Notes under the pieces: generated by a model
The model's input: only the letters and a program-made list of their open reading frames with translations
The model's database searches: none
What the model was told of the DNA's origin: nothing
Origin: Turneriella sp.
GTDB lineage: Bacteria > Spirochaetota > Leptospiria > Turneriellales > Turneriellaceae
Direction: 5' to 3'
DNA length: 64,000 bases
Assembly (NCBI GenBank): GCA_965279515.1
Contig: CBDIID010000003.1
Coordinates: forward strand, 288,001 to 352,000
Shown: one piece after another, positions 10,007 to 17,655 of the stretch
How the letters are laid out: each line of letters starts with the position of its first letter
Numbering within the stretch: position 1 is the first letter of the stretch
Position numbers and translations under genes: made by a program

Positions 10007-10034
10007 ATGTGACATAAGATACCCTATATGTTGT
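10007..10034 (-). other. attL: dif-like site (degenerate XerC arm, GGTATC spacer, XerD-like arm)
   Basis: Minus strand reads ACAACATATAG-GGTATC-TTATGTCACAT; right arm matches 9/11 of E. coli XerD arm TTATGTTAAAT. Confidence 0.75.
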
Positions 10035-10038
10035 AGTT

Positions 10039-10362
10039 ATGTCGCCAAGGCATGTAGAGCGCGCACCGTATTTCCGGGATCGTACAAACCGGCAATATTA
10101 TCGTCGGCCGGGGGAATCCGGGAACGGTTTTTTCTCCCGATTTATGCGGGATACGTTGCGCCTAGACAGTTTTGAGGCACGTCGTCAAGGTCGGCGGCCG
10201 TATGGTGGGAAAAGTGTTCAGTACGTAGGGTGGCTTGACTGGTGCCGCCTTACTAGGTCGGTACATCCGAACGACTGGCGCCGAGTAAAGCAATATGGCT
10301 TCCGTGCCCCTGATGGCAATATCTACAAACTACGAAATCGCTATGGCGTGGTACGGCGTTGA
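10039..10362 (+). CDS. prophage hypothetical Arg-rich protein (start uncertain)
   Basis: ORF track; overlaps next ORF; may be partly non-coding origin/promoter DNA. Confidence 0.3.
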   Translation: MSPRHVERAPYFRDRTNRQYYRRPGESGNGFFSRFMRDTLRLDSFEARRQGRRPYGGKSVQYVGWLDWCRLTRSVHPNDWRRVKQYGFRAPDGNIYKLRNRYGVVRR

Positions 10363-10513
10363 AATGCAACGTTGGGGCGGGGGTAGCTGGATTACGATCA
10401 GCGTGCTCGCCGAGAATGCGGGGCACGCCTGTATGAAGGCTGAGCGCCGAAGGCCGGGCTACATAGCGATGTCAGTAGAGCGTGGAAATACTTATAAAAG
10501 GCGGTTTCGATGA
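10343..10513 (+). CDS. prophage small hypothetical protein (MAWYGVEMQRW...)
   Basis: In frame with track ORF 10295-10513; ATGA-coupled to next ORF. Confidence 0.55.
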   Translation: MAWYGVEMQRWGGGSWITISVLAENAGHACMKAERRRPGYIAMSVERGNTYKRRFR

Positions 10514-10755
10514 AAATAATGGAAGATGAGACAGGTACTGGTGTGACCATTATCATGGATCAAAGTAAAAAGTCTGATACTCTTTTTTATGCGATGGGAA
10601 TATCCCTCGTGATAAAAGGTGCGCTGGCTGATGGATTTACGCAGGTTTTTGTGAATACAAAACCTGACCGGGAAGGTAACGACCGTGTGTTGTTGTCATT
10701 CCGGAAACCTTCGCCGCGTCCCGAAGGGGAACAGCGGGGGGAACAGCATGGCTAA
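10510..10755 (+). CDS. prophage hypothetical protein (possible ssDNA-binding protein)
   Basis: 81 aa, beta-rich with flexible C-tail; function inferred from size and position only. Confidence 0.55.
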   Translation: MKIMEDETGTGVTIIMDQSKKSDTLFYAMGISLVIKGALADGFTQVFVNTKPDREGNDRVLLSFRKPSPRPEGEQRGEQHG

Positions 10756-10966
10756 TTTTTGTATTTATGTCAGTACGTCCGAGGGCAAACGAATTGTTCG
10801 CGGTACTGCGCTGACTGTGCCTGAATTTATGGAAAAAGTTCAGGCCCGATTTACACCTGAGAAGATTCGCAGCGAAGGTGTTTATGAAGAAATGGATCTT
10901 GATGAGACCCCGGCGATTCATGCCGGTGTGACAACACGCAAGATTCGTGCGAAGAAAGTGGATTAG
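10748..10966 (+). CDS. prophage hypothetical protein
   Basis: ATG 10748 after GGGGG RBS, in frame with track ORF 10685-10966; overlaps upstream stop. Confidence 0.6.
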   Translation: MANFCIYVSTSEGKRIVRGTALTVPEFMEKVQARFTPEKIRSEGVYEEMDLDETPAIHAGVTTRKIRAKKVD

Positions 10967-10989
10967 GCGGAAGGAAAAGGGAAAATGAA

Positions 10990-11217
10990 ATGGCTTGGTA
11001 CGGGAAAAGATATGGTGGTTATCGACCGCGCAAGAGGTTTGTCGTGAGACGCTTTTTTGGCGGTCGTCGGCGTCGGGGTGGTGGGTCACCCATGGCGAAG
11101 CGTCGCGCGTTTTTTTGGGGTGGCATCCTGATGATTTTCATCATGATGTGTGCCCCAAATGTTCGCGCATGGATCGTTGCGAAGTTCTCGCAGTGGTTCC
11201 CCAGCTGGAGGGCATGA
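10990..11217 (+). CDS. prophage Arg/Gly-rich protein with single TM helix (candidate DNA-membrane tether)
   Basis: MAWYGKRYGGYRPRKRFVVRRFFGGRRRR... then hydrophobic FFWGGILMIFIMMC; purine-rich RBS. Confidence 0.7.
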   Translation: MAWYGKRYGGYRPRKRFVVRRFFGGRRRRGGGSPMAKRRAFFWGGILMIFIMMCAPNVRAWIVAKFSQWFPSWRA

Positions 11218-11218
11218 G

Positions 11219-11920
11219 ATGTATCAGTATAATCGGGAACTGAATGCGGTTGCGATGGCCGCTGGTCAATATCAGTTTGATGTTGAAAAGCAGCTTGTTT
11301 CTAAAATTGCCATTGGTCTGCGTTCCACTGGATCACCTCCGGTAACGCCGACTGTGGCTCAGCTGAAGGCAACTTTTTTCGTTGCTCGCCATATTGCTCC
11401 CGGGGTCGACCGCGAGCTGTATAATATTAGCCTTTATGATCTGGCTATGCTTACAGACGAAAAAGGTGGTTATTCACGTGATTGGACGGATACGGATTTA
11501 TCGGACACGAATATTGTGGCACCGTTTGGACTTGATCTTCGTCAGGAAGGAAAAATCCAGTGCTATATCAGTGTTCCGGCCACGATCGCTAACTGCGCTA
11601 TATCTGCCTACCCTGTGTACGATGGCCAAATGCCTACAACGCTTGCGTACCGTACGCAGACGACGTCTGGAAGCTGTTCTATCAGTAATTGCTTCCGGTT
11701 GTACTCGCGGGACGAGTCGGGTACTGAGCTTGACCTCAAGGTGGGGGATTTCTCTAAGAAAGCCATTGACTTTCTTATGGGAAAGATCCTTTTCAGTGAG
11801 CAGGCCAAGATCGAGAACGAAACGCCGTTCGCGCTGCTTTATTCGAGTCCATCACCGTATTTGGTGAAGCTCGACCGTATGGCGGGCAGTTGCACGTTTG
11901 TTTCTGTGGAGCTTCCATAA
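11219..11920 (+). CDS. candidate major capsid protein (233 aa, beta-rich; possible double jelly roll)
   Basis: ATG 11219 after GGAGG; no TM or signal peptide; alternating hydrophobic beta pattern with short helices; function is inference. Confidence 0.5.
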   Translation: MYQYNRELNAVAMAAGQYQFDVEKQLVSKIAIGLRSTGSPPVTPTVAQLKATFFVARHIAPGVDRELYNISLYDLAMLTDEKGGYSRDWTDTDLSDTNIVAPFGLDLRQEGKIQCYISVPATIANCAISAYPVYDGQMPTTLAYRTQTTSGSCSISNCFRLYSRDESGTELDLKVGDFSKKAIDFLMGKILFSEQAKIENETPFALLYSSPSPYLVKLDRMAGSCTFVSVELP

Positions 11921-12579
11921 TGTTGATGCCGGGCGGTAGTGAGGGGCCGAATTCTGATGTTATTATTCGTGATTTTTACGAAGATCAGAAAACGGCGTTA
12001 AGAGCTACCGCTCGGAATCGTGCGGACGCTGACCGGAAGGTTCGGGAATATGAAGAATTCATAGAGGCTAGGCGTTCCACGCTGGAGTCCGCCCAGGTCG
12101 CGCAGTGGGAGAGGGAAAAGCAAGAAAGAGAAGCAAAGAATAAAGCCGCGTCTGGGGAATCTTTCATATCCAACGCGGGTGGCCTTCTTGGAAAACTCTG
12201 GGATGGCATTGTGGGTAATTATACCGGTGGTGCCCTTTCTTCAGATAGCCTGAAGAAATACGGCAAGAATGCGGTTGGGGTGTCGGATTTCGATGCTCCG
12301 AAGGTTGATATCCCGAATTTCGATTTTGAAGGTTTCAAAGCGAAATCGGCGGCCGCATCCAAAGCAGCTGCTAACGCGGAACTCAGGGCTGCGGGCGGTG
12401 GTACGGCCAATTATGGGTCAGGGGCTATTGCCATGACGAAAGAGGTTAAGGAATTTTCAGATTCGTTTACGAACGGTATCGACAAGAGTCGTATCGGATA
12501 TACGTTGCCGAATTTGAGCCTTCCTGATTTTGATTTTATGGGTGGAGCTCAGCAAGTGAGGGATTTTTATGAACTTTAG
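11920..12579 (+). CDS. prophage coiled-coil Ala/Gly-rich protein (candidate pilot/DNA-delivery protein)
   Basis: TAATG coupling to upstream gene; charged helical N-half, Ala/Gly-rich segments. Confidence 0.6.
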   Translation: MLMPGGSEGPNSDVIIRDFYEDQKTALRATARNRADADRKVREYEEFIEARRSTLESAQVAQWEREKQEREAKNKAASGESFISNAGGLLGKLWDGIVGNYTGGALSSDSLKKYGKNAVGVSDFDAPKVDIPNFDFEGFKAKSAAASKAAANAELRAAGGGTANYGSGAIAMTKEVKEFSDSFTNGIDKSRIGYTLPNLSLPDFDFMGGAQQVRDFYEL

Positions 12580-12826
12580 TATGGGCAGTTTGAATTCGCT
12601 TCTTTCGGGAGCGAGCGAGATATCAGGATCGTTCGGTGGGCCGACGATACCTGGGGCTACGCCGCCGCCTCCGCCGCCACCAGCGGTGCAGGCTGTTACG
12701 CCGCGTGATTCGGGCGCCGACTTTGGCGCGGGTACTTATGCCGCTGGTGCGGGCGTATCATTGGTTGCGTTGTATCTTGGATACAAGGCTCTGCGGTATT
12801 TCGGTGTTATTCCGAAGGTAATATGA
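12569..12826 (+). CDS. prophage Pro-rich small membrane protein
   Basis: Poly-Pro linker followed by C-terminal TM (AAGAGVSLVALYLGY) and basic tail. Confidence 0.7.
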   Translation: MNFSMGSLNSLLSGASEISGSFGGPTIPGATPPPPPPPAVQAVTPRDSGADFGAGTYAAGAGVSLVALYLGYKALRYFGVIPKVI

Positions 12827-12957
12827 TCCGCAAAATACTTGCTGGGATTTTGAGGTTCATTCACAATGAAGCGTTGTTGCTTAAGCTGGCTGATTATTTG
12901 GAACAGCCTTCTTTGGATGAATCCGTGGGGCAGCCTGATGGCCAAGAAGCTTCTTAA
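12823..12957 (+). CDS. prophage small hypothetical protein (44 aa)
   Basis: ATGA-coupled ORF MIRKILAGILRFIHNEALLLKLADYLEQPSLDESVGQPDGQEAS; not in the track. Confidence 0.55.
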   Translation: MIRKILAGILRFIHNEALLLKLADYLEQPSLDESVGQPDGQEAS

Positions 12958-13579
12958 GAACGTTGAGGCCCCGGCTGGCCTTCGGGATATTATTCTGGAG
13001 GAGTATGAAGCTTACAAAGCTTATCGGGGCGCCGGTGCGCCTGATCAATTATTTAGTACTTTTGCCGCTTCGTCTGGAACTGGCGTTCCCTCTCATGATG
13101 CTGGTAAAGCTATTGATATTGTTACTGACGGTTACGATAGCCGCCCTTATCTTTTTGAATTTGGGATTTGGCTATTTGTTAAAAGACCGGACCTGAGCGT
13201 TTACTTCTATTCGATGCAGTATGAACCGCATGTTCATATTGGGCAGGTTTCTGGGTTTGGAAAGGGATCTTACCTAGCCGTGAACAAAGGTGCAAAGGGT
13301 AAGTTCGATATTTATCCGCGTGCCCAGGTCGCCGGCAAAGCTTCGGATATAATCGGAAAGCTGAAAGCGGCGCGGGAAACTTATCCTGCGGGTGTAAATG
13401 TGGATTGGCCTACCTATCAGGCCATGCTTGAGGGGAAGGTCCCTGTAGGGACGAGTAATTGGAAACAGTATTTGAAAAAATACTGGTGGGTTGGATTATT
13501 GAGCTTTTTGGCTCTTGGAATCGGTTTTTTTATTTGGAGATCTAGGAATCAGGAGGAAACTGAAGATGGAATTGCATGA
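12938..13579 (+). CDS. M15/LAS-type zinc peptidoglycan peptidase with C-terminal membrane anchor
   Basis: SHDAGKAID (SxH..G.AxD) and PHVHIG (HxH) motifs; C-terminal TM YWWVGLLSFLALGIGFFIW; start moved to ATG 12938. Confidence 0.7.
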   Translation: MAKKLLKNVEAPAGLRDIILEEYEAYKAYRGAGAPDQLFSTFAASSGTGVPSHDAGKAIDIVTDGYDSRPYLFEFGIWLFVKRPDLSVYFYSMQYEPHVHIGQVSGFGKGSYLAVNKGAKGKFDIYPRAQVAGKASDIIGKLKAARETYPAGVNVDWPTYQAMLEGKVPVGTSNWKQYLKKYWWVGLLSFLALGIGFFIWRSRNQEETEDGIA

Positions 13580-13664
13580 TGTAGGTTTAAACGAGTTGCT
13601 TCTCGTAGTGTTTAACCTGATCACCACAGTGATCGCGTATTTTCGTGGTAAAAAATCTAACTGA
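13566..13664 (+). CDS. prophage 32-aa single-TM protein (holin-like or virion membrane protein)
   Basis: AGGAGG RBS; MELHDVGLNELLLVVFNLITTVIAYFRGKKSN; TGATG-coupled to next ORF. Confidence 0.65.
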   Translation: MELHDVGLNELLLVVFNLITTVIAYFRGKKSN

Positions 13665-14140
13665 TGAAGTGGGTTTGGACCGCGTTGATTGGCCTTGTTG
13701 GCTGGTTAATTTATGATTGGCTCCGGGATAAACCCGGGGCTGTTTCCAACTCGGTGCAGGATTCTGCAGACATGATGGGGGCCGTGGCAGACGGTATCAT
13801 TGAAAAGCAGAATGCAAAGAAGCCGAAGAAATGGATTTGGCTTTTGCTTGGCTCTGTCCCTGTTATCGGGACGGGTCTTTTTTTCCTATTCAGAAAAAAG
13901 AAGCCTATGAGTAATCTGTTTAATTTGGGTTATTTGGGTCAGAAGGCTCCGGCAGGATCGGAATTTGATTCTCGATACTTAGCAGGATGCGCGAAGGCAC
14001 GGCGGGAGAGTTTGAAGATGGATTTCGCTAAGACTCAGGGCGCAACGGTCGCCGGCTTACCGATAGAGAGTGTGATGGCCACTTTTGGCAAGAAGAAGGT
14101 GTACGATGAAGGTAATTTCAGAAAAGCTCAGCGGTACTAG
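13664..14140 (+). CDS. prophage two-TM membrane protein
   Basis: Hydrophobic segments WVWTALIGLVGWLIY and WIWLLLGSVPVIGTGLFFLF flanked by Lys clusters. Confidence 0.7.
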   Translation: MKWVWTALIGLVGWLIYDWLRDKPGAVSNSVQDSADMMGAVADGIIEKQNAKKPKKWIWLLLGSVPVIGTGLFFLFRKKKPMSNLFNLGYLGQKAPAGSEFDSRYLAGCAKARRESLKMDFAKTQGATVAGLPIESVMATFGKKKVYDEGNFRKAQRY

Positions 14141-14573
14141 AAGCTTCCGTGGCTTGGGCTTTGTTGAGATAAATGGGATTCAGTATCCCGTTTGTGGTTC
14201 TCGACAGTTTGAATGTGGTAGAAAGGCGACGGTGCGGTACGTCGATGAGCAGATAGAAATGTTGGAAGTGTTGGAACCGACAATGCTCGCAGTTTTTCCC
14301 GGGAGCTTAGAGGGGTTCCCTATTGCAACGAACGGTAGAGTTTTTGTCACGGTGGACAAGAAATATTCTCTTTATAGGGGACTGCTCGAAGGCATATGTT
14401 TGGGCGGTATTTCGGACGGTGCATCGACGATATCTGTCGTACCGCCGCTTTTTTTGAACTCACGTTATATATATGGCGCCGGAAGGATCGATCAGTGGAA
14501 CCCGGATTTCCCTGTATGGGATTCAAGCTTTGATTTGGCCTGGGATTTTGACGCTGTATCGATGCGTCAATGA
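14106..14573 (+). CDS. prophage hypothetical protein (possible vertex/spike component)
   Basis: ATG 14106 in frame with track ORF; ATGA-coupled to next gene. Confidence 0.6.
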   Translation: MKVISEKLSGTRSFRGLGFVEINGIQYPVCGSRQFECGRKATVRYVDEQIEMLEVLEPTMLAVFPGSLEGFPIATNGRVFVTVDKKYSLYRGLLEGICLGGISDGASTISVVPPLFLNSRYIYGAGRIDQWNPDFPVWDSSFDLAWDFDAVSMRQ

Positions 14574-15265
14574 TCGTTGGCAATCGATCATTGATACTGC
14601 CGGTTTCGGAGGCCGGTTGGGATAGGCTTTGGTCCCCGCCTGTTCGCAATTTCTCTTATCCGGATTCACGTGCTGGATTAATTCAAGGTTGCGTTGGGGA
14701 CGTGCCGGCGAAATCCGATATTACGCCGTATCTTGCGGGGAATGTATGGAATTCTGTCCAGATTTTAAGGTATAATCCGCCCACGAGTGTAGCGCTGACG
14801 CATGAGTATGGCAATACGTTCACGGGATCGGCGTGGACGCACGACGGTGATTTTCGTGACATGGCAGGCGCTGCGATATTTCCGGCTCCGCTGAATAATT
14901 ATCAGCGGGCGTTTGGCACGTTTGCAAATATTGGTATAGATCCGGATGAATCCGGAAAACCAGCCGCGAATTCGTTTAGTTATTTAATAAAATACAATCT
15001 TCAACGCGGTGGGTTCGTGCAAGTGTACGAGTTTGAAGAAGGGGCAGACGGCATCGTCTCCGTATCTATTCAAGGTGGTGTTGCTTCAGCCGTTAAGGCA
15101 CTTCGGATTTCCGATGGTTCATGGCAGGTTATCTCAGAAGGTGGAATGCTGCTGCCGGCGGGTGGTGGCCAGTTTTGGTTAAACGCCTCGTGGACGTCCG
15201 GTGTCGCGGCTACGCAAATGATTGCGCGACTGCGGTTTAGCGTAGAGGTTCCGTATGGCTTATGA
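14570..15265 (+). CDS. prophage beta-rich protein (possible receptor-binding spike)
   Basis: 231 aa, aromatic- and Gly-rich beta-like pattern, last gene before rep; function inferred. Confidence 0.6.
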   Translation: MIVGNRSLILPVSEAGWDRLWSPPVRNFSYPDSRAGLIQGCVGDVPAKSDITPYLAGNVWNSVQILRYNPPTSVALTHEYGNTFTGSAWTHDGDFRDMAGAAIFPAPLNNYQRAFGTFANIGIDPDESGKPAANSFSYLIKYNLQRGGFVQVYEFEEGADGIVSVSIQGGVASAVKALRISDGSWQVISEGGMLLPAGGGQFWLNASWTSGVAATQMIARLRFSVEVPYGL

Positions 15266-16010
15266 TTTGGCCGACGAGGCCGAGTCCTATTATTTCGATC
15301 AGTCTTTGAGCCCGGTGGTTTTGGATTATCCAAACGGCCGGGAAGTCTATTTTGAGGCAGCTCGAAAAAAAGAAGTCTTTGGTGGGGGGAAACGTGGAAA
15401 AGTCTTTTCAATGTCCGCTGCGGCGGTCAGAAGGTTCCGGCAGGCGCTTCGGCGAAGTGGTGCGAAATTTTCGCATTTCGTTACAGTCACTTTTCCGCCT
15501 GAGGTTCTTGGGATCGATGAGGATTGGCCCAGGTATGTCCGTAAGTTTTGGCAAAAACTTGCCGCCGAATGTCGCAAGAGGGATATTACGTATTTGTGGG
15601 TACGCGAGCCGCACAAAAGCGGACAACCACATTATCACATTATATGTACGAAAGGGCCGTTATTTCGGTTACTTGCGAATCGCATCATATCGGAGGGGAC
15701 AACCCGGGAGCGTGGACGACTTAACCTCCGGGTGGGTGTTCTGTGCAAAGCAATCTATCACGAAGGCGGTGCTGCGCGCTATATGTCAAAACTCGCCGGC
15801 TATTGCAGCAAGGAATCGCAGGTATTGCACGAGGAATCGTATCGTCATTGGGGCCGAAACTACGATGACGAGCTCCCAGACATCTACGAAGCAACTGCCG
15901 CTGTTTGCGACTGGGTAAGAAGCCAATATGATCGGCTGTATGCTTTTAAATTTCCGCGATTACTGCAGGTGCCGCGGGGTCTCCCCGTGGGGCCGGCGCT
16001 TTACTTTTAG
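15255..16010 (+). CDS. rep: HUH rolling-circle replication initiator (two-Tyr type)
   Basis: Motif I FVTVTF, motif II REPHKSGQPHYHII, motif III YMSKLAGYCSK. Confidence 0.88.
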   Translation: MAYDLADEAESYYFDQSLSPVVLDYPNGREVYFEAARKKEVFGGGKRGKVFSMSAAAVRRFRQALRRSGAKFSHFVTVTFPPEVLGIDEDWPRYVRKFWQKLAAECRKRDITYLWVREPHKSGQPHYHIICTKGPLFRLLANRIISEGTTRERGRLNLRVGVLCKAIYHEGGAARYMSKLAGYCSKESQVLHEESYRHWGRNYDDELPDIYEATAAVCDWVRSQYDRLYAFKFPRLLQVPRGLPVGPALYF

Positions 16011-16079
16011 CGCGCCGCACAATAATCCCCCTGGCTGAACAAGCAGGCCGGAGGCCGCACGTTTACGCGGCGAAAAGTG

Positions 16080-16224
16080 CCGTCTGCAGACGGATGTCTG
16101 CTTGCACGTCAAAAATCGTCGATCTCGATTTTGTTACAGGGCTATGCGTAGCCCTTTTTGCGTTTTGCTGCAGCAAAACGCGGGGGGTCCGGGGGGGCGA
16201 TAGCCCCGCCCGGGGGCGAAGCCC
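16080..16224. other. hairpin cluster, putative replication origin (dso/sso)
   Basis: Perfect palindromes 16080-16093 and 16160-16181; hairpins GGGCTA-TGCG-TAGCCC, GGGGC-GATA-GCCCC, GGGC-GAA-GCCC immediately after rep. Confidence 0.65.
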
Positions 16225-16402
16225 TTGGTTATAGACACATATTGAAGTTGACCTACTGAAAACATTGGGTTTTCTTGTCTTATGGGAATAGCAGAAGCAA
16301 TATTCATAATTGGTATCTGGGTTGGATCGAACGGAATCGTGTTTTGCGTCGCTGCGGAACTCTCCGGCAACTCGTTTTGTGTGTTTTAACAAAAAAAAGT
16401 TG

Positions 16403-16430
16403 ACGAGACATAAGATACCTTATGGGAAGT
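16403..16430 (-). other. attR: dif-like site (XerC arm, GGTATC spacer, element-derived XerD-like arm)
   Basis: Minus strand reads ACTTCCCATAA-GGTATC-TTATGTCTCGT; 11-6-11 layout with inner ATAA/TTAT palindrome; left arm matches 9/11 of B. subtilis dif arm ACTTCCTAGAA. Confidence 0.8.
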
Positions 16431-16453: not shown

Positions 16454-17590
16454 TCAGGGCGCTTGATTAACCGGTATCGCTTTAATCTGATAAGCGAAAT
16501 AAATGAAAAATAATATGTTTATCGGTACCTGTACATACGCCTTACACCAGTCTTGATTATAGATTAGCGTGACCAGAGAAAACAGTACTAGCACTGCTAA
16601 GTTCGGCCAACTGCTCTTTTGAAATTTCAAACGGCTGAGCATAAAGAAAAATACCGGAATCAGAAGAAATGCCCAATAAGGCCAGACTATTGGCGTGAGA
16701 ATACCCGAAATTCCCAGGCCATACGCATATCCTTCAAGCTTCTGCGTTCTTTTTATGCTCAGAAATAAAAGCCCTGCGGCGGCGGCGGTCATGAACCAAA
16801 AGATAAAGGCCAGACGTTGACTGAAGCCAAGATGCAGCAACCAACCGATCAGCGATTCGTTGTCCCGATGTCCCAACAGCCCTTCAGAAGATTTAGTCAG
16901 GCTCTTTAACCATGCGCCATTTTCAACGGTTGAGAATTCCCAGCCGGAATAAAGCGCGGTAACGCCGTAACTAATGATAATTAGCCAGACCGGAATCAGC
17001 AACAACCCTAGCCAGCGCCTTTGGATCAGAAATATCGGTGCGATAAAAAGAAAATGCAATTTGAATAAGATTGCCAACGCAAGGCAAAGCGCGGCGAGAA
17101 CCTGGGAAAATCGGGTTTCCGCGTTCAATAGTACATATGTCCCAAGGGAAAGAATAAGCGGCAGACCATTAATTTGCCCTAGCCTAAGTTCATCCCGAAT
17201 ACTTACAATAAAGACCAATGAAGTTATGATTTTTCCCTGGAATTCTGAAATTGTGCCATCAAATGAAAAATATTTCGGCAAAGCAAAAAATATCAGCCAA
17301 ATCCAGGCGGCCGTAAAAAGAAAATAGAAAATCCAAGGCCGCGCTTCCTTAGGGCAAGGAGTAATAATCGCACCAAAAAACAGCGCCACGGAAGGCGAAT
17401 ATTTGAATTGATAGTGATTTTCCACATCGAAAACCGTTTTGTGATTTATTGCTTTGGCCCCGGCCTCTTCGTATACCCTAAAATCGTCGAAAACCGGCTT
17501 GGAATTTAAAAACATGGTAAATACATACACCAAAACGAGGCCAGAAAGAATAAGAAATCTCCGTTGCTTGCTAAGAACCATATTGCCCAT
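16454..17590 (-). CDS. GT87/DUF2029-family polytopic glycosyltransferase (GT-C)
   Basis: DFRVY, FKYSP, ELRLGQIN, LAILFK, NESL motifs; many TM helices. Confidence 0.8.
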   Translation of the reverse strand: MGNMVLSKQRRFLILSGLVLVYVFTMFLNSKPVFDDFRVYEEAGAKAINHKTVFDVENHYQFKYSPSVALFFGAIITPCPKEARPWIFYFLFTAAWIWLIFFALPKYFSFDGTISEFQGKIITSLVFIVSIRDELRLGQINGLPLILSLGTYVLLNAETRFSQVLAALCLALAILFKLHFLFIAPIFLIQRRWLGLLLIPVWLIIISYGVTALYSGWEFSTVENGAWLKSLTKSSEGLLGHRDNESLIGWLLHLGFSQRLAFIFWFMTAAAAGLLFLSIKRTQKLEGYAYGLGISGILTPIVWPYWAFLLIPVFFFMLSRLKFQKSSWPNLAVLVLFSLVTLIYNQDWCKAYVQVPINILFFIYFAYQIKAIPVNQAP

Positions 17591-17655
17591 TCATTTTATC
17601 CCTTTCAAGAACATTTGCCGTCGAAGTTAGAAGGTAAAGTATATTTCGGGGGATT

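Follow-up and report, generated by a model that had tools for sequence, protein, structure and literature searches.

What does a 233-aa ORF that matches no named protein family encode, and to what kind of element does it belong? The ORF (ATG at 11219, stop ending at 11920, + strand) lies in a 64,000-nt stretch of a Turneriella sp. genome (the window, to which coordinates refer unless stated otherwise), and the first-pass annotation, made from the letters alone, had proposed it as the best candidate for a minimal double-jelly-roll (DJR) major capsid protein. The gene-level part of that description held up: GGAGG at 11207-11211 stands 7 nt ahead of the ATG, the protein is soluble with a top 19-residue hydropathy window of 1.18, and the gene directly follows that of an Arg-rich transmembrane (TM) protein, the 75-aa ORF at 10990-11217. 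Upstream of the ATG, the frame stays open to a GTG at 11150, which would give 256 aa. We take 11219 as the true start because P0001, a 91% identical homologue, begins at the same Met and the seven homologues recovered in the first search (43-91% identity, all unnamed proteins) are 230-240 aa long.

Wider homologue searches with the family gave 13 matches and later 16 (230-245 aa), and the recovery of homologues in each search (7, 13, and 16) places the ORF beyond chance. The alignment used below, A2, left out P0013 (an 84-aa fragment) and P0015 among the 13 matches; P0015, a 2,397-aa protein with 20 matched stretches, was judged spurious. P0060, among the 16, has the same length as a protein already in the query, that of genome G342 described below, and is not independent. 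The 233-aa protein has no match in Pfam, PHROGs, or NCBIfam, nor in PDB by sequence profile. Pfam compared with A2 (18 members) returned four stray families, each in one of the 18, and the Pfam match for P2, the PM2 capsid protein, appeared in none of the 18. No match was found by tblastn against INPHARED (50,697 phage records), and pattern scans for capsid loci, which may miss near records and do not imply absence, confirmed none in viral contigs and found none in genome or metagenome contigs. A PTxAxLK pattern is conserved at the position of helix 46-50 in the family alignment, which can serve as a new marker because the family goes undetected by Pfam, PHROGs, and NCBIfam.

An AlphaFold2 monomer built from an 8-sequence alignment (pLDDT 74.7, pTM 0.74) was predicted as two beta-rich halves forming a double jelly roll, with two tandem jelly-roll beta-sandwiches and helices at residues 46-50, 72-78, and 185-188; residues 187-201 have pLDDT <50. 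The annotation had described one short helix in each half. The helices at 72-78 and 185-188 bear this out, the helix at 46-50 had been overlooked, and the second-half helix is of low confidence in the monomer yet forms a confident interface (184-191) in the trimer. Foldseek against PDB placed FLiP first (E 5e-9), followed by STIV (1.2e-7), phiCjT23 (1.5e-7; TM 0.64/0.63), a PBCV-1 chain, and PM2 P2 (5.9e-7). VIA-align against 48,161 chains ranked phiCjT23 best (Z 15.4, rmsd 3.5, 209 residues aligned, 10% identity), ahead of FLiP (Z 14.4), STIV (13.9), PM2 (13.2), and PRD1 (13.1), all five being DJR capsid proteins; the model aligned at full length with 7ZZZ, 5OAC, 2BBD, 2VVF, and 1W8X. The top six BFVD rows include the Wip1, STIV, and GC1 capsid proteins. 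In the ESM Atlas, where recognition value is low and matches are leads only, three look-alike clusters stood at 0.95-0.97, the second-ranked (0.96) with PM2 P2_N in 18% and P2_C in 17% of its members. Two unnamed Atlas clusters at 0.95-0.97 (54 members, 236 aa; 163 members, 233 aa, with Bacteroidota the commonest phylum) could represent additional small DJR capsid families that lack annotation.

Cellular DJR enzymes of the DUF2961 type also match the model, at VIA-align Z 10.1-10.5 over ~200 residues, which would suit a non-capsid DJR cargo protein such as a DUF2961-type glycoside hydrolase. That reading is most improbable: the five viral capsid proteins score 2.6-4.9 Z higher, the enzymes are 369-447 aa long, and the gene belongs to the conserved core of all three Rep-bearing elements, in each of which an Arg-rich gene stands immediately before it.

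Three copies of the protein, in a job (three copies, own alignment) that falls outside the tool's calibration, were predicted as a head-to-tail homotrimer at 0.86 against 0.01 for the best control; among reference cases, 20 of 30 solved pairs and one of 23 single chains attain the mark. Between runs, 75% or more of the contacts were the same, partner pLDDT was at least 89, and at the interface helix 184-191 contacts residues 31-35, 98-100, and 129-133 in the first barrel of the neighbor. In phiCjT23, a helix follows strand F in each barrel and the FG2-alpha helix packs on the neighboring monomer, as set out in PMC9719478. The predicted model likewise has a helix after strand F in both barrels (72-78 and 184-191), the second lying on the neighbor, and the predicted homotrimer is pseudo-hexameric. 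The trimer score may reflect likeness to solved DJR trimers.

The link by sequence to known capsid proteins is not convincing: HHalign gave a weak match of the family to FLiP (probability 9.7%, E 0.0033, 78 columns in the F-strand/FG1-helix region) and a probability of 0.2% with phiCjT23. The annotation had suggested AlphaFold monomer and trimer models and a structure search against phiCjT23, FLiP, and PM2 P2 as checks. The predicted monomer is a DJR, the trimer exceeds its controls, and all three reference proteins are among the top matches, so that three structure searches and the trimer support the original proposal. Judged on these models, ORF 11219-11920 almost certainly encodes a DJR capsid protein; it is the putative dominant virion protein.

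The capsid gene sits within a compact prophage (Table 1). The four small ORFs at its left end, which have no significant family match in Pfam, PHROGs, or NCBIfam, are probably early or regulatory genes. The protein encoded immediately after the capsid gene gave a weak tblastn match to FLiP gp9 (E 0.008 over 29 aa, searching two genomes). No packaging ATPase was recognized: six-frame translations of all three elements lack a Walker A motif, there is no family match in Pfam, PHROGs, or NCBIfam, and no Rfam RNA was found within the element. A 20-nt repeat (D12, 19 of 20 identical) occurs at 13937-13956 and 15425-15444, within two coding regions.

Table 1. Features of the integrated element, in window coordinates
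Feature	Coordinates	Strand	Basis
attL: host dif arm, 6-bp center GATACC, degenerate phage arm	10007-10034	+	Repeat D8, genome-wide dif scan, empty site in relatives
Prophage, 6,396 bp, every gene on +	10024-16419	+	~93% coding, GC skew about +0.14 to +0.23
Four small ORFs (10039-10362, 10295-10513, 10510-10755, 10748-10966)	10039-10966	+	ORF list
75-aa Arg-rich protein with membrane segment, candidate genome-binding membrane anchor	10990-11217	+	Anatomy and position of FLiP gp7
DJR major capsid protein candidate, 233 aa	11219-11920	+	AlphaFold2, Foldseek, VIA-align, BFVD, trimer; Atlas lead
219-aa helical Ala/Gly-rich protein, candidate minor membrane-associated capsid protein	11920-12579	+	Position of FLiP gp9 / phiCjT23 gp6
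85-aa protein, Pro run and hydrophobic C-terminus	12569-12826	+	ORF list, hydropathy
44-aa amphipathic ORF	12823-12957	+	70% identical over 27 aa in G012
213-aa likely Zn peptidoglycan peptidase, C-terminal membrane anchor	12938-13579	+	H..A[IV]D and HxH pattern
32-aa membrane protein	13566-13664	+	Hydropathy 1.95
158-aa membrane protein	13664-14140	+	Hydropathy 2.08; positional counterpart in G012
155-aa protein, candidate vertex/penton component	14106-14573	+	N-terminal 54 aa 50% identical in G012
231-aa beta-rich variable protein, candidate spike/receptor-binding protein	14570-15265	+	Variability, low-confidence model, position
HUH rolling-circle replication initiator (Rep)	15255-16010	+	PF23343, phrog_3419, motifs
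Non-coding hairpin-rich region, candidate replication origin(s); inverted dif-like site at ~16257-16291	16011-16402	+	ssDNA fold
attR: phage arm, GATACC, host arm	16403-16430	+	2 mismatches from genus dif

Rep matches PF23343 (E 1.4e-11, above the cut-off) and phrog_3419 (E 8e-7) and carries a PHYH motif and YxxKxxxY. The 75-aa protein contains 14 Arg and no Asp or Glu, with a hydropathy of 1.9-2.0. Its counterpart in FLiP, the structural protein gp7 encoded directly before the capsid gene, has 84 aa, 18 Arg, and a membrane segment. An Arg-rich gene precedes the capsid gene in all three elements, with 14 Arg here, 19 in G012, and 19 in G342 (where the hydrophobic stretch is weaker); phiCjT23 gp4 is not Arg-rich (1 Arg). 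In ORF 12938, residues H53, D60, H98, and H100 are invariant across the three elements. We take this protein to be a likely M15/LAS peptidase, a label for which there was no significant HMM or PDB match. The roles given here to the peptidase, the spike, and the Arg-rich protein are candidate ones, drawn from motif, position, and analogy.

The annotation had named ORF 14570-15265 as an example of a possible rival for dominant virion protein. It has one non-self homologue and is 22% identical to a 270-aa positional counterpart in G012, where the capsid protein is 35% identical. Its model has low confidence (pLDDT 45.9) and matches no chain at Z >=8, with no DJR capsid protein among the best 50 rows; residues 72-230 match single beta-sandwiches at Z <=7.4, and the PRD1 vertex protein P5 at 6.2 is within noise. 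No profile match to the phiCjT23 spike was found, and the gene is last in the structural block, as is the phiCjT23 spike gene. Being variable, last in that block, and modeled, at low confidence, as a single beta-sandwich, ORF 14570 is best read as a candidate spike, more likely that than the major capsid protein. Were it instead a single-jelly-roll major capsid protein, with the 233-aa protein minor, its beta-rich character would fit, and were the whole element an inovirus or a plasmid-like IMEX, the occurrence of the Rep family in inoviruses would fit as well; the Atlas adds a weak lead (0.75) from ORF 14570 to microvirus spike G. We regard both variants as highly unlikely, since ORF 14570 is poorly conserved and has no clear counterpart recognized in G342, the DJR protein is the conserved one, and a Zot/pI-type morphogenesis ATPase, as in the Inoviridae, was detected neither by Walker A motif nor by family match.

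A 23-nt imperfect repeat, with copies 6,396 bp apart, bounds this GC-skewed, one-strand gene block. The empty site predicted from its outer arms is present in 13 of 13 same-genus genomes with at most three mismatches (exact in six; reversed control, 0), and tatC, the left neighbor here, flanks the empty site in eight of the 13 relatives' loci. On the chromosome contig the element spans 298.0-304.4 kb, and the maximum of cumulative GC skew falls at ~310 kb; this maximum and the empty site in relatives identify the insertion site as dif at the replication terminus. With five mismatches to the genus dif in attL and two in attR, dif is nearly regenerated at attR. The host arm in attL is presumably XerD-like, the XerC/XerD labels following the usual consensus. 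The host carries four PF00589 tyrosine recombinase genes, none inside the element. Insertion at chromosomal dif with no integrase of its own is shared with the IMEXs CTXphi and TLCphi, which also nearly regenerate dif at one end according to PMC6744903; their capsid is filamentous, whereas an icosahedral DJR capsid is predicted here, and the element has no XafT/DUF3653 match.

If integration were CTX-like, it would be irreversible by Xer, as described in PMC6744903, and together with the five mismatches in attL this would suit a locked or cryptic prophage whose capsid gene is genuine and which no longer makes particles. We consider this rather unlikely, because every ORF in 10024-16419 is open at ~93% coding, a 91%-identical capsid protein is found elsewhere, and five of the six members of the nearest other homologue cluster have a longest contig of 6.38-6.55 kb, about one genome unit. 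Among the 48 cluster members listed, the longest contig is 5.8-6.9 kb in 12 and >10 kb in two; the 5.8-6.9-kb homologue contigs fit free genomes. In a single study that is probably the source of this DNA, four runs, covered as contigs at a depth of 3.7-8.9, all showed the integrated form and no end-to-end joint, which is uninformative on activity. No CRISPR-like match to the element was evident in blastn hits against 14 genus genomes or its own genome.

The region after Rep folds strongly as ssDNA (z -3.74, with 0 of 100 shuffles as good). The inverted dif-like site at 16257-16291, which lies ~140 nt inward from attR, is among the best duplex partners of the circle junction and has the top score (-10.6 to -11.3 kcal/mol), although an unrelated site at 12730 also reaches -10.6 kcal/mol and the minimum-energy fold lacks the stem between 16257-16291 and the junction that a CTX-type hairpin attP would need. 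Extra dif-like arms also occur inside the G342 element (L036 ~8553 and 12337). Only the circular form joins 16400-16405 to 10027-10032, bringing TTGACG, 17 nt, and TATGTT (9 of 12 sigma-70 positions) before the first genes. The same strict sigma-70 filter passed no site within the element itself, and G012 has TTGACA at the matching place. An excision-gated promoter at the circle junction is possible, with 9/12 sites occurring near chance (10 found, 6.6 expected).

Several features of the surroundings were recorded. Further dif-like sites lie on small contigs, namely G000:C1 4801 and 28276 (an identical pair on this genome's 38-kb contig), G011:C2 35-62, and G004:C37 5996-6023, and these contigs are possibly Xer-using plasmids or phages. 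A complete rRNA operon (16S, tRNA-Ile, tRNA-Ala, 23S, 5S) occupies 23265-29011 on the - strand, ~7 kb from dif; the terminus is an unusual place for one. Right of attR, a lower-GC block (16454-22300) encodes a GT87 glycosyltransferase, an AraC-like regulator (C-terminal motif), and outer-membrane-like genes. Among the 13 relatives' dif loci, the AraC-like gene was matched in L006 only and GT87 in none, and the block looks like a variable region beside dif.

Among 12 loci matched by the host's PdxJ, the nearest are from named spirochaete genomes, namely a Spirochaetes MAG (83%), a Leptospiraceae MAG (71%), and Turneriella (62%), with the rest at 49-55%; the host is accordingly read as a spirochaete related to Leptospira/Turneriella. 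Matches to the capsid profile are sparse: two of 61 relatives, two of 401 phylum genomes, two of 190 in the class, and one of 122 in the class of G342, three genomes in all, with counts that include the query genomes and many genomes searched in part only. G012, of the same genus, has a syntenic element in opposite orientation that ends at dif and whose left end is cut by the contig; its capsid protein, peptidase, and Rep are 35%, 34%, and 33% identical to those here. In G342, which belongs to another class, dif repeats flank a 6,412-bp element that carries Rep, the peptidase, an Arg-rich gene, and a capsid gene of 238 aa arranged differently; modules have therefore been reshuffled within the family. 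In that element (L036 13500-14860), about eight tiny ORFs precede Rep, and the peptidase lies ahead of the capsid gene. Searches of the open literature turned up no previous account of DJR prophages from spirochaetes; neither "spiroch" nor "Leptospira" occurs in the main text of PMC5894146, and its supplements (524 contigs) could include such elements.

The closest known system is phiCjT23 (PMC9719478; PDB 7ZZZ; ON067806), the best structural match. Its minimal DJR capsid protein has 239 aa, and phiCjT23-like prophages are described there as temperate, dif-flanked, and 6,021-8,407 bp long; the element here is flanked by dif at both ends, and its length lies inside that range. No ATPase is annotated in phiCjT23, and gene order is broadly alike in position, running from the capsid gene through those for a helical protein, a small amphipathic product, a lytic-like TM protein, and small TM proteins to the spike gene. 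The two differ in host (Bacteroidota, Flavobacterium, versus a spirochaete), in Rep (Rep_trans, PF02486, close before the capsid gene versus HUH, PF23343, last), and in capsid sequence, where similarity is undetectable at BLAST level and stands at 10% identity in the structural alignment. Unlike phiCjT23, the element also has the Arg-rich TM gene before the capsid gene and the extra helix 46-50.

With FLiP (Finnlakeviridae, Ainoaviricetes; PDB 5OAC; MF361639), the top Foldseek match, the element shares the lack of a packaging ATPase and the single gene orientation that belong to the family definition (PMC7654751), as well as the Arg-rich TM structural protein directly before the capsid gene. 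FLiP differs in being virulent, with a 9,174-nt genome, a 311-aa capsid protein, an M13-like G2P/CRI Rep (PF05144), an SLT lytic enzyme, and a Flavobacterium host; the present element is integrated in a spirochaete. The virion of the family holds circular ssDNA and an inner membrane within a pseudo T=21 shell, to which the TM proteins and the hairpin-rich intergenic region of the element point indirectly. PM2 and the other Vinavirales, including NO16, share the DJR fold, to which the Atlas lead to P2_N/P2_C adds. DJR viruses generally are described as encoding a packaging ATPase (PMC5894146), and NO16, with a 265-aa capsid protein and dsDNA, does so (PMC13552765); none was found here, the character that separates the element from Corticoviridae and Vinavirales. 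The Odin group, as described in PMC5894146, resembles it in lacking an ATPase, in small genomes, in a small conserved gene before the capsid gene, and in a sporadic M15 peptidase. By that description it stands apart, since its upstream protein has no conserved polar residues whereas the one here is Arg-rich, and the ParB and PD-(D/E)XK nucleases of Odin were not found in the element. The element works like phiCjT23 and FLiP but has a host from another phylum, a different class of Rep, and a divergent capsid sequence. By these characters it falls outside Finnlakeviridae (Rep class, host), outside the phiCjT23-like set (Rep class, host, capsid sequence), and outside Vinavirales (ATPase).

On the predicted structures and this context, ORF 11219-11920 very probably encodes the major capsid protein of a DJR phage that is temperate, tailless, and 6.4 kb in genome size, with a Leptospira/Turneriella-related spirochaete as its host. 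By analogy, we think it probable that the virion is membrane containing and carries ssDNA. The ssDNA assignment is likely rather than established, because an HUH Rep and the absence of an ATPase also fit dsDNA. PM2 has an HUH-type rolling-circle Rep and pairs rolling-circle replication with dsDNA. The Rep here, too, is HUH and not of the Rep_trans or G2P type of phiCjT23 and FLiP, and the ATPase-less Odin genomes of 7-11 kb are treated as dsDNA in PMC5894146, so the same capsid protein might enclose circular dsDNA through PM2-like rolling-circle replication and Odin-like ATPase-free assembly. We hold this to be the less probable outcome, and a doubtful one: phiCjT23 and FLiP, the ssDNA DJR phages, give the two highest structural matches, though only 0.5-2.2 in Z separates them from STIV and PM2, and the FLiP-gp7-like gene, the one-strand genes, and dif integration as in phiCjT23-like prophages point the same way.

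For an ssDNA virion, the following mechanism can be proposed, building on a DJR fold and head-to-tail trimer that are predicted and on a dif insertion, an HUH Rep, and a lack of ATPase and integrase genes that are read from the DNA. On the model of phiCjT23 and FLiP, trimers would act as the pseudo-hexameric capsomers of a small icosahedral capsid, probably of pseudo T=21 geometry, enclosing an inner membrane to which the small TM proteins contribute. The genome would be packaged by co-assembly, probably as an ssDNA circle, with the Arg-rich TM protein binding it, anchoring DNA to the membrane, and replacing a packaging ATPase. Host XerC/XerD would integrate the element at dif, Rep would restart rolling-circle replication, the anchored peptidase would cut peptidoglycan at entry or lysis, and ORF 14570 would be the receptor-binding spike. 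We are evenly divided on a broader proposal, that this is the founding member of an undescribed spirochaete family of temperate, membrane-containing ssDNA DJR phages that combine a 230-240-aa capsid protein and an HUH Rep with ATPase-free packaging through a FLiP-P7-like Arg-rich protein, and maybe with dif integration through a folded ssDNA attP whose circle switches on an early promoter. If so, the HUH Rep and the minimal DJR capsid protein would be a pairing not seen in FLiP or phiCjT23.

At 239 aa, the phiCjT23 protein is given as the smallest known DJR capsid protein (PMC9719478) and as the only one shorter than the 265 aa of NO16 (PMC13552765, 2026); a record of 233 against 239 aa is marginal, unnamed Atlas look-alike clusters of 233-236 aa already exist, and a genome of 6,396 bp is unexceptional beside 6,021-8,407 bp. 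According to PMC9719478 and PMC13552765, solved ssDNA DJR phages number just two, each of them from Flavobacterium. A lineage with divergent sequences in a second phylum, and with a different class of Rep, would show that the minimal DJR design without an ATPase is widespread and exchanges its replication modules, which bears on the origin of Varidnaviria. The Arg-rich membrane gene common to FLiP and all three spirochaete elements is a concrete candidate for motor-free DNA packaging, and a 6.4-kb dif-integrating replicon could aid spirochaete genetics.
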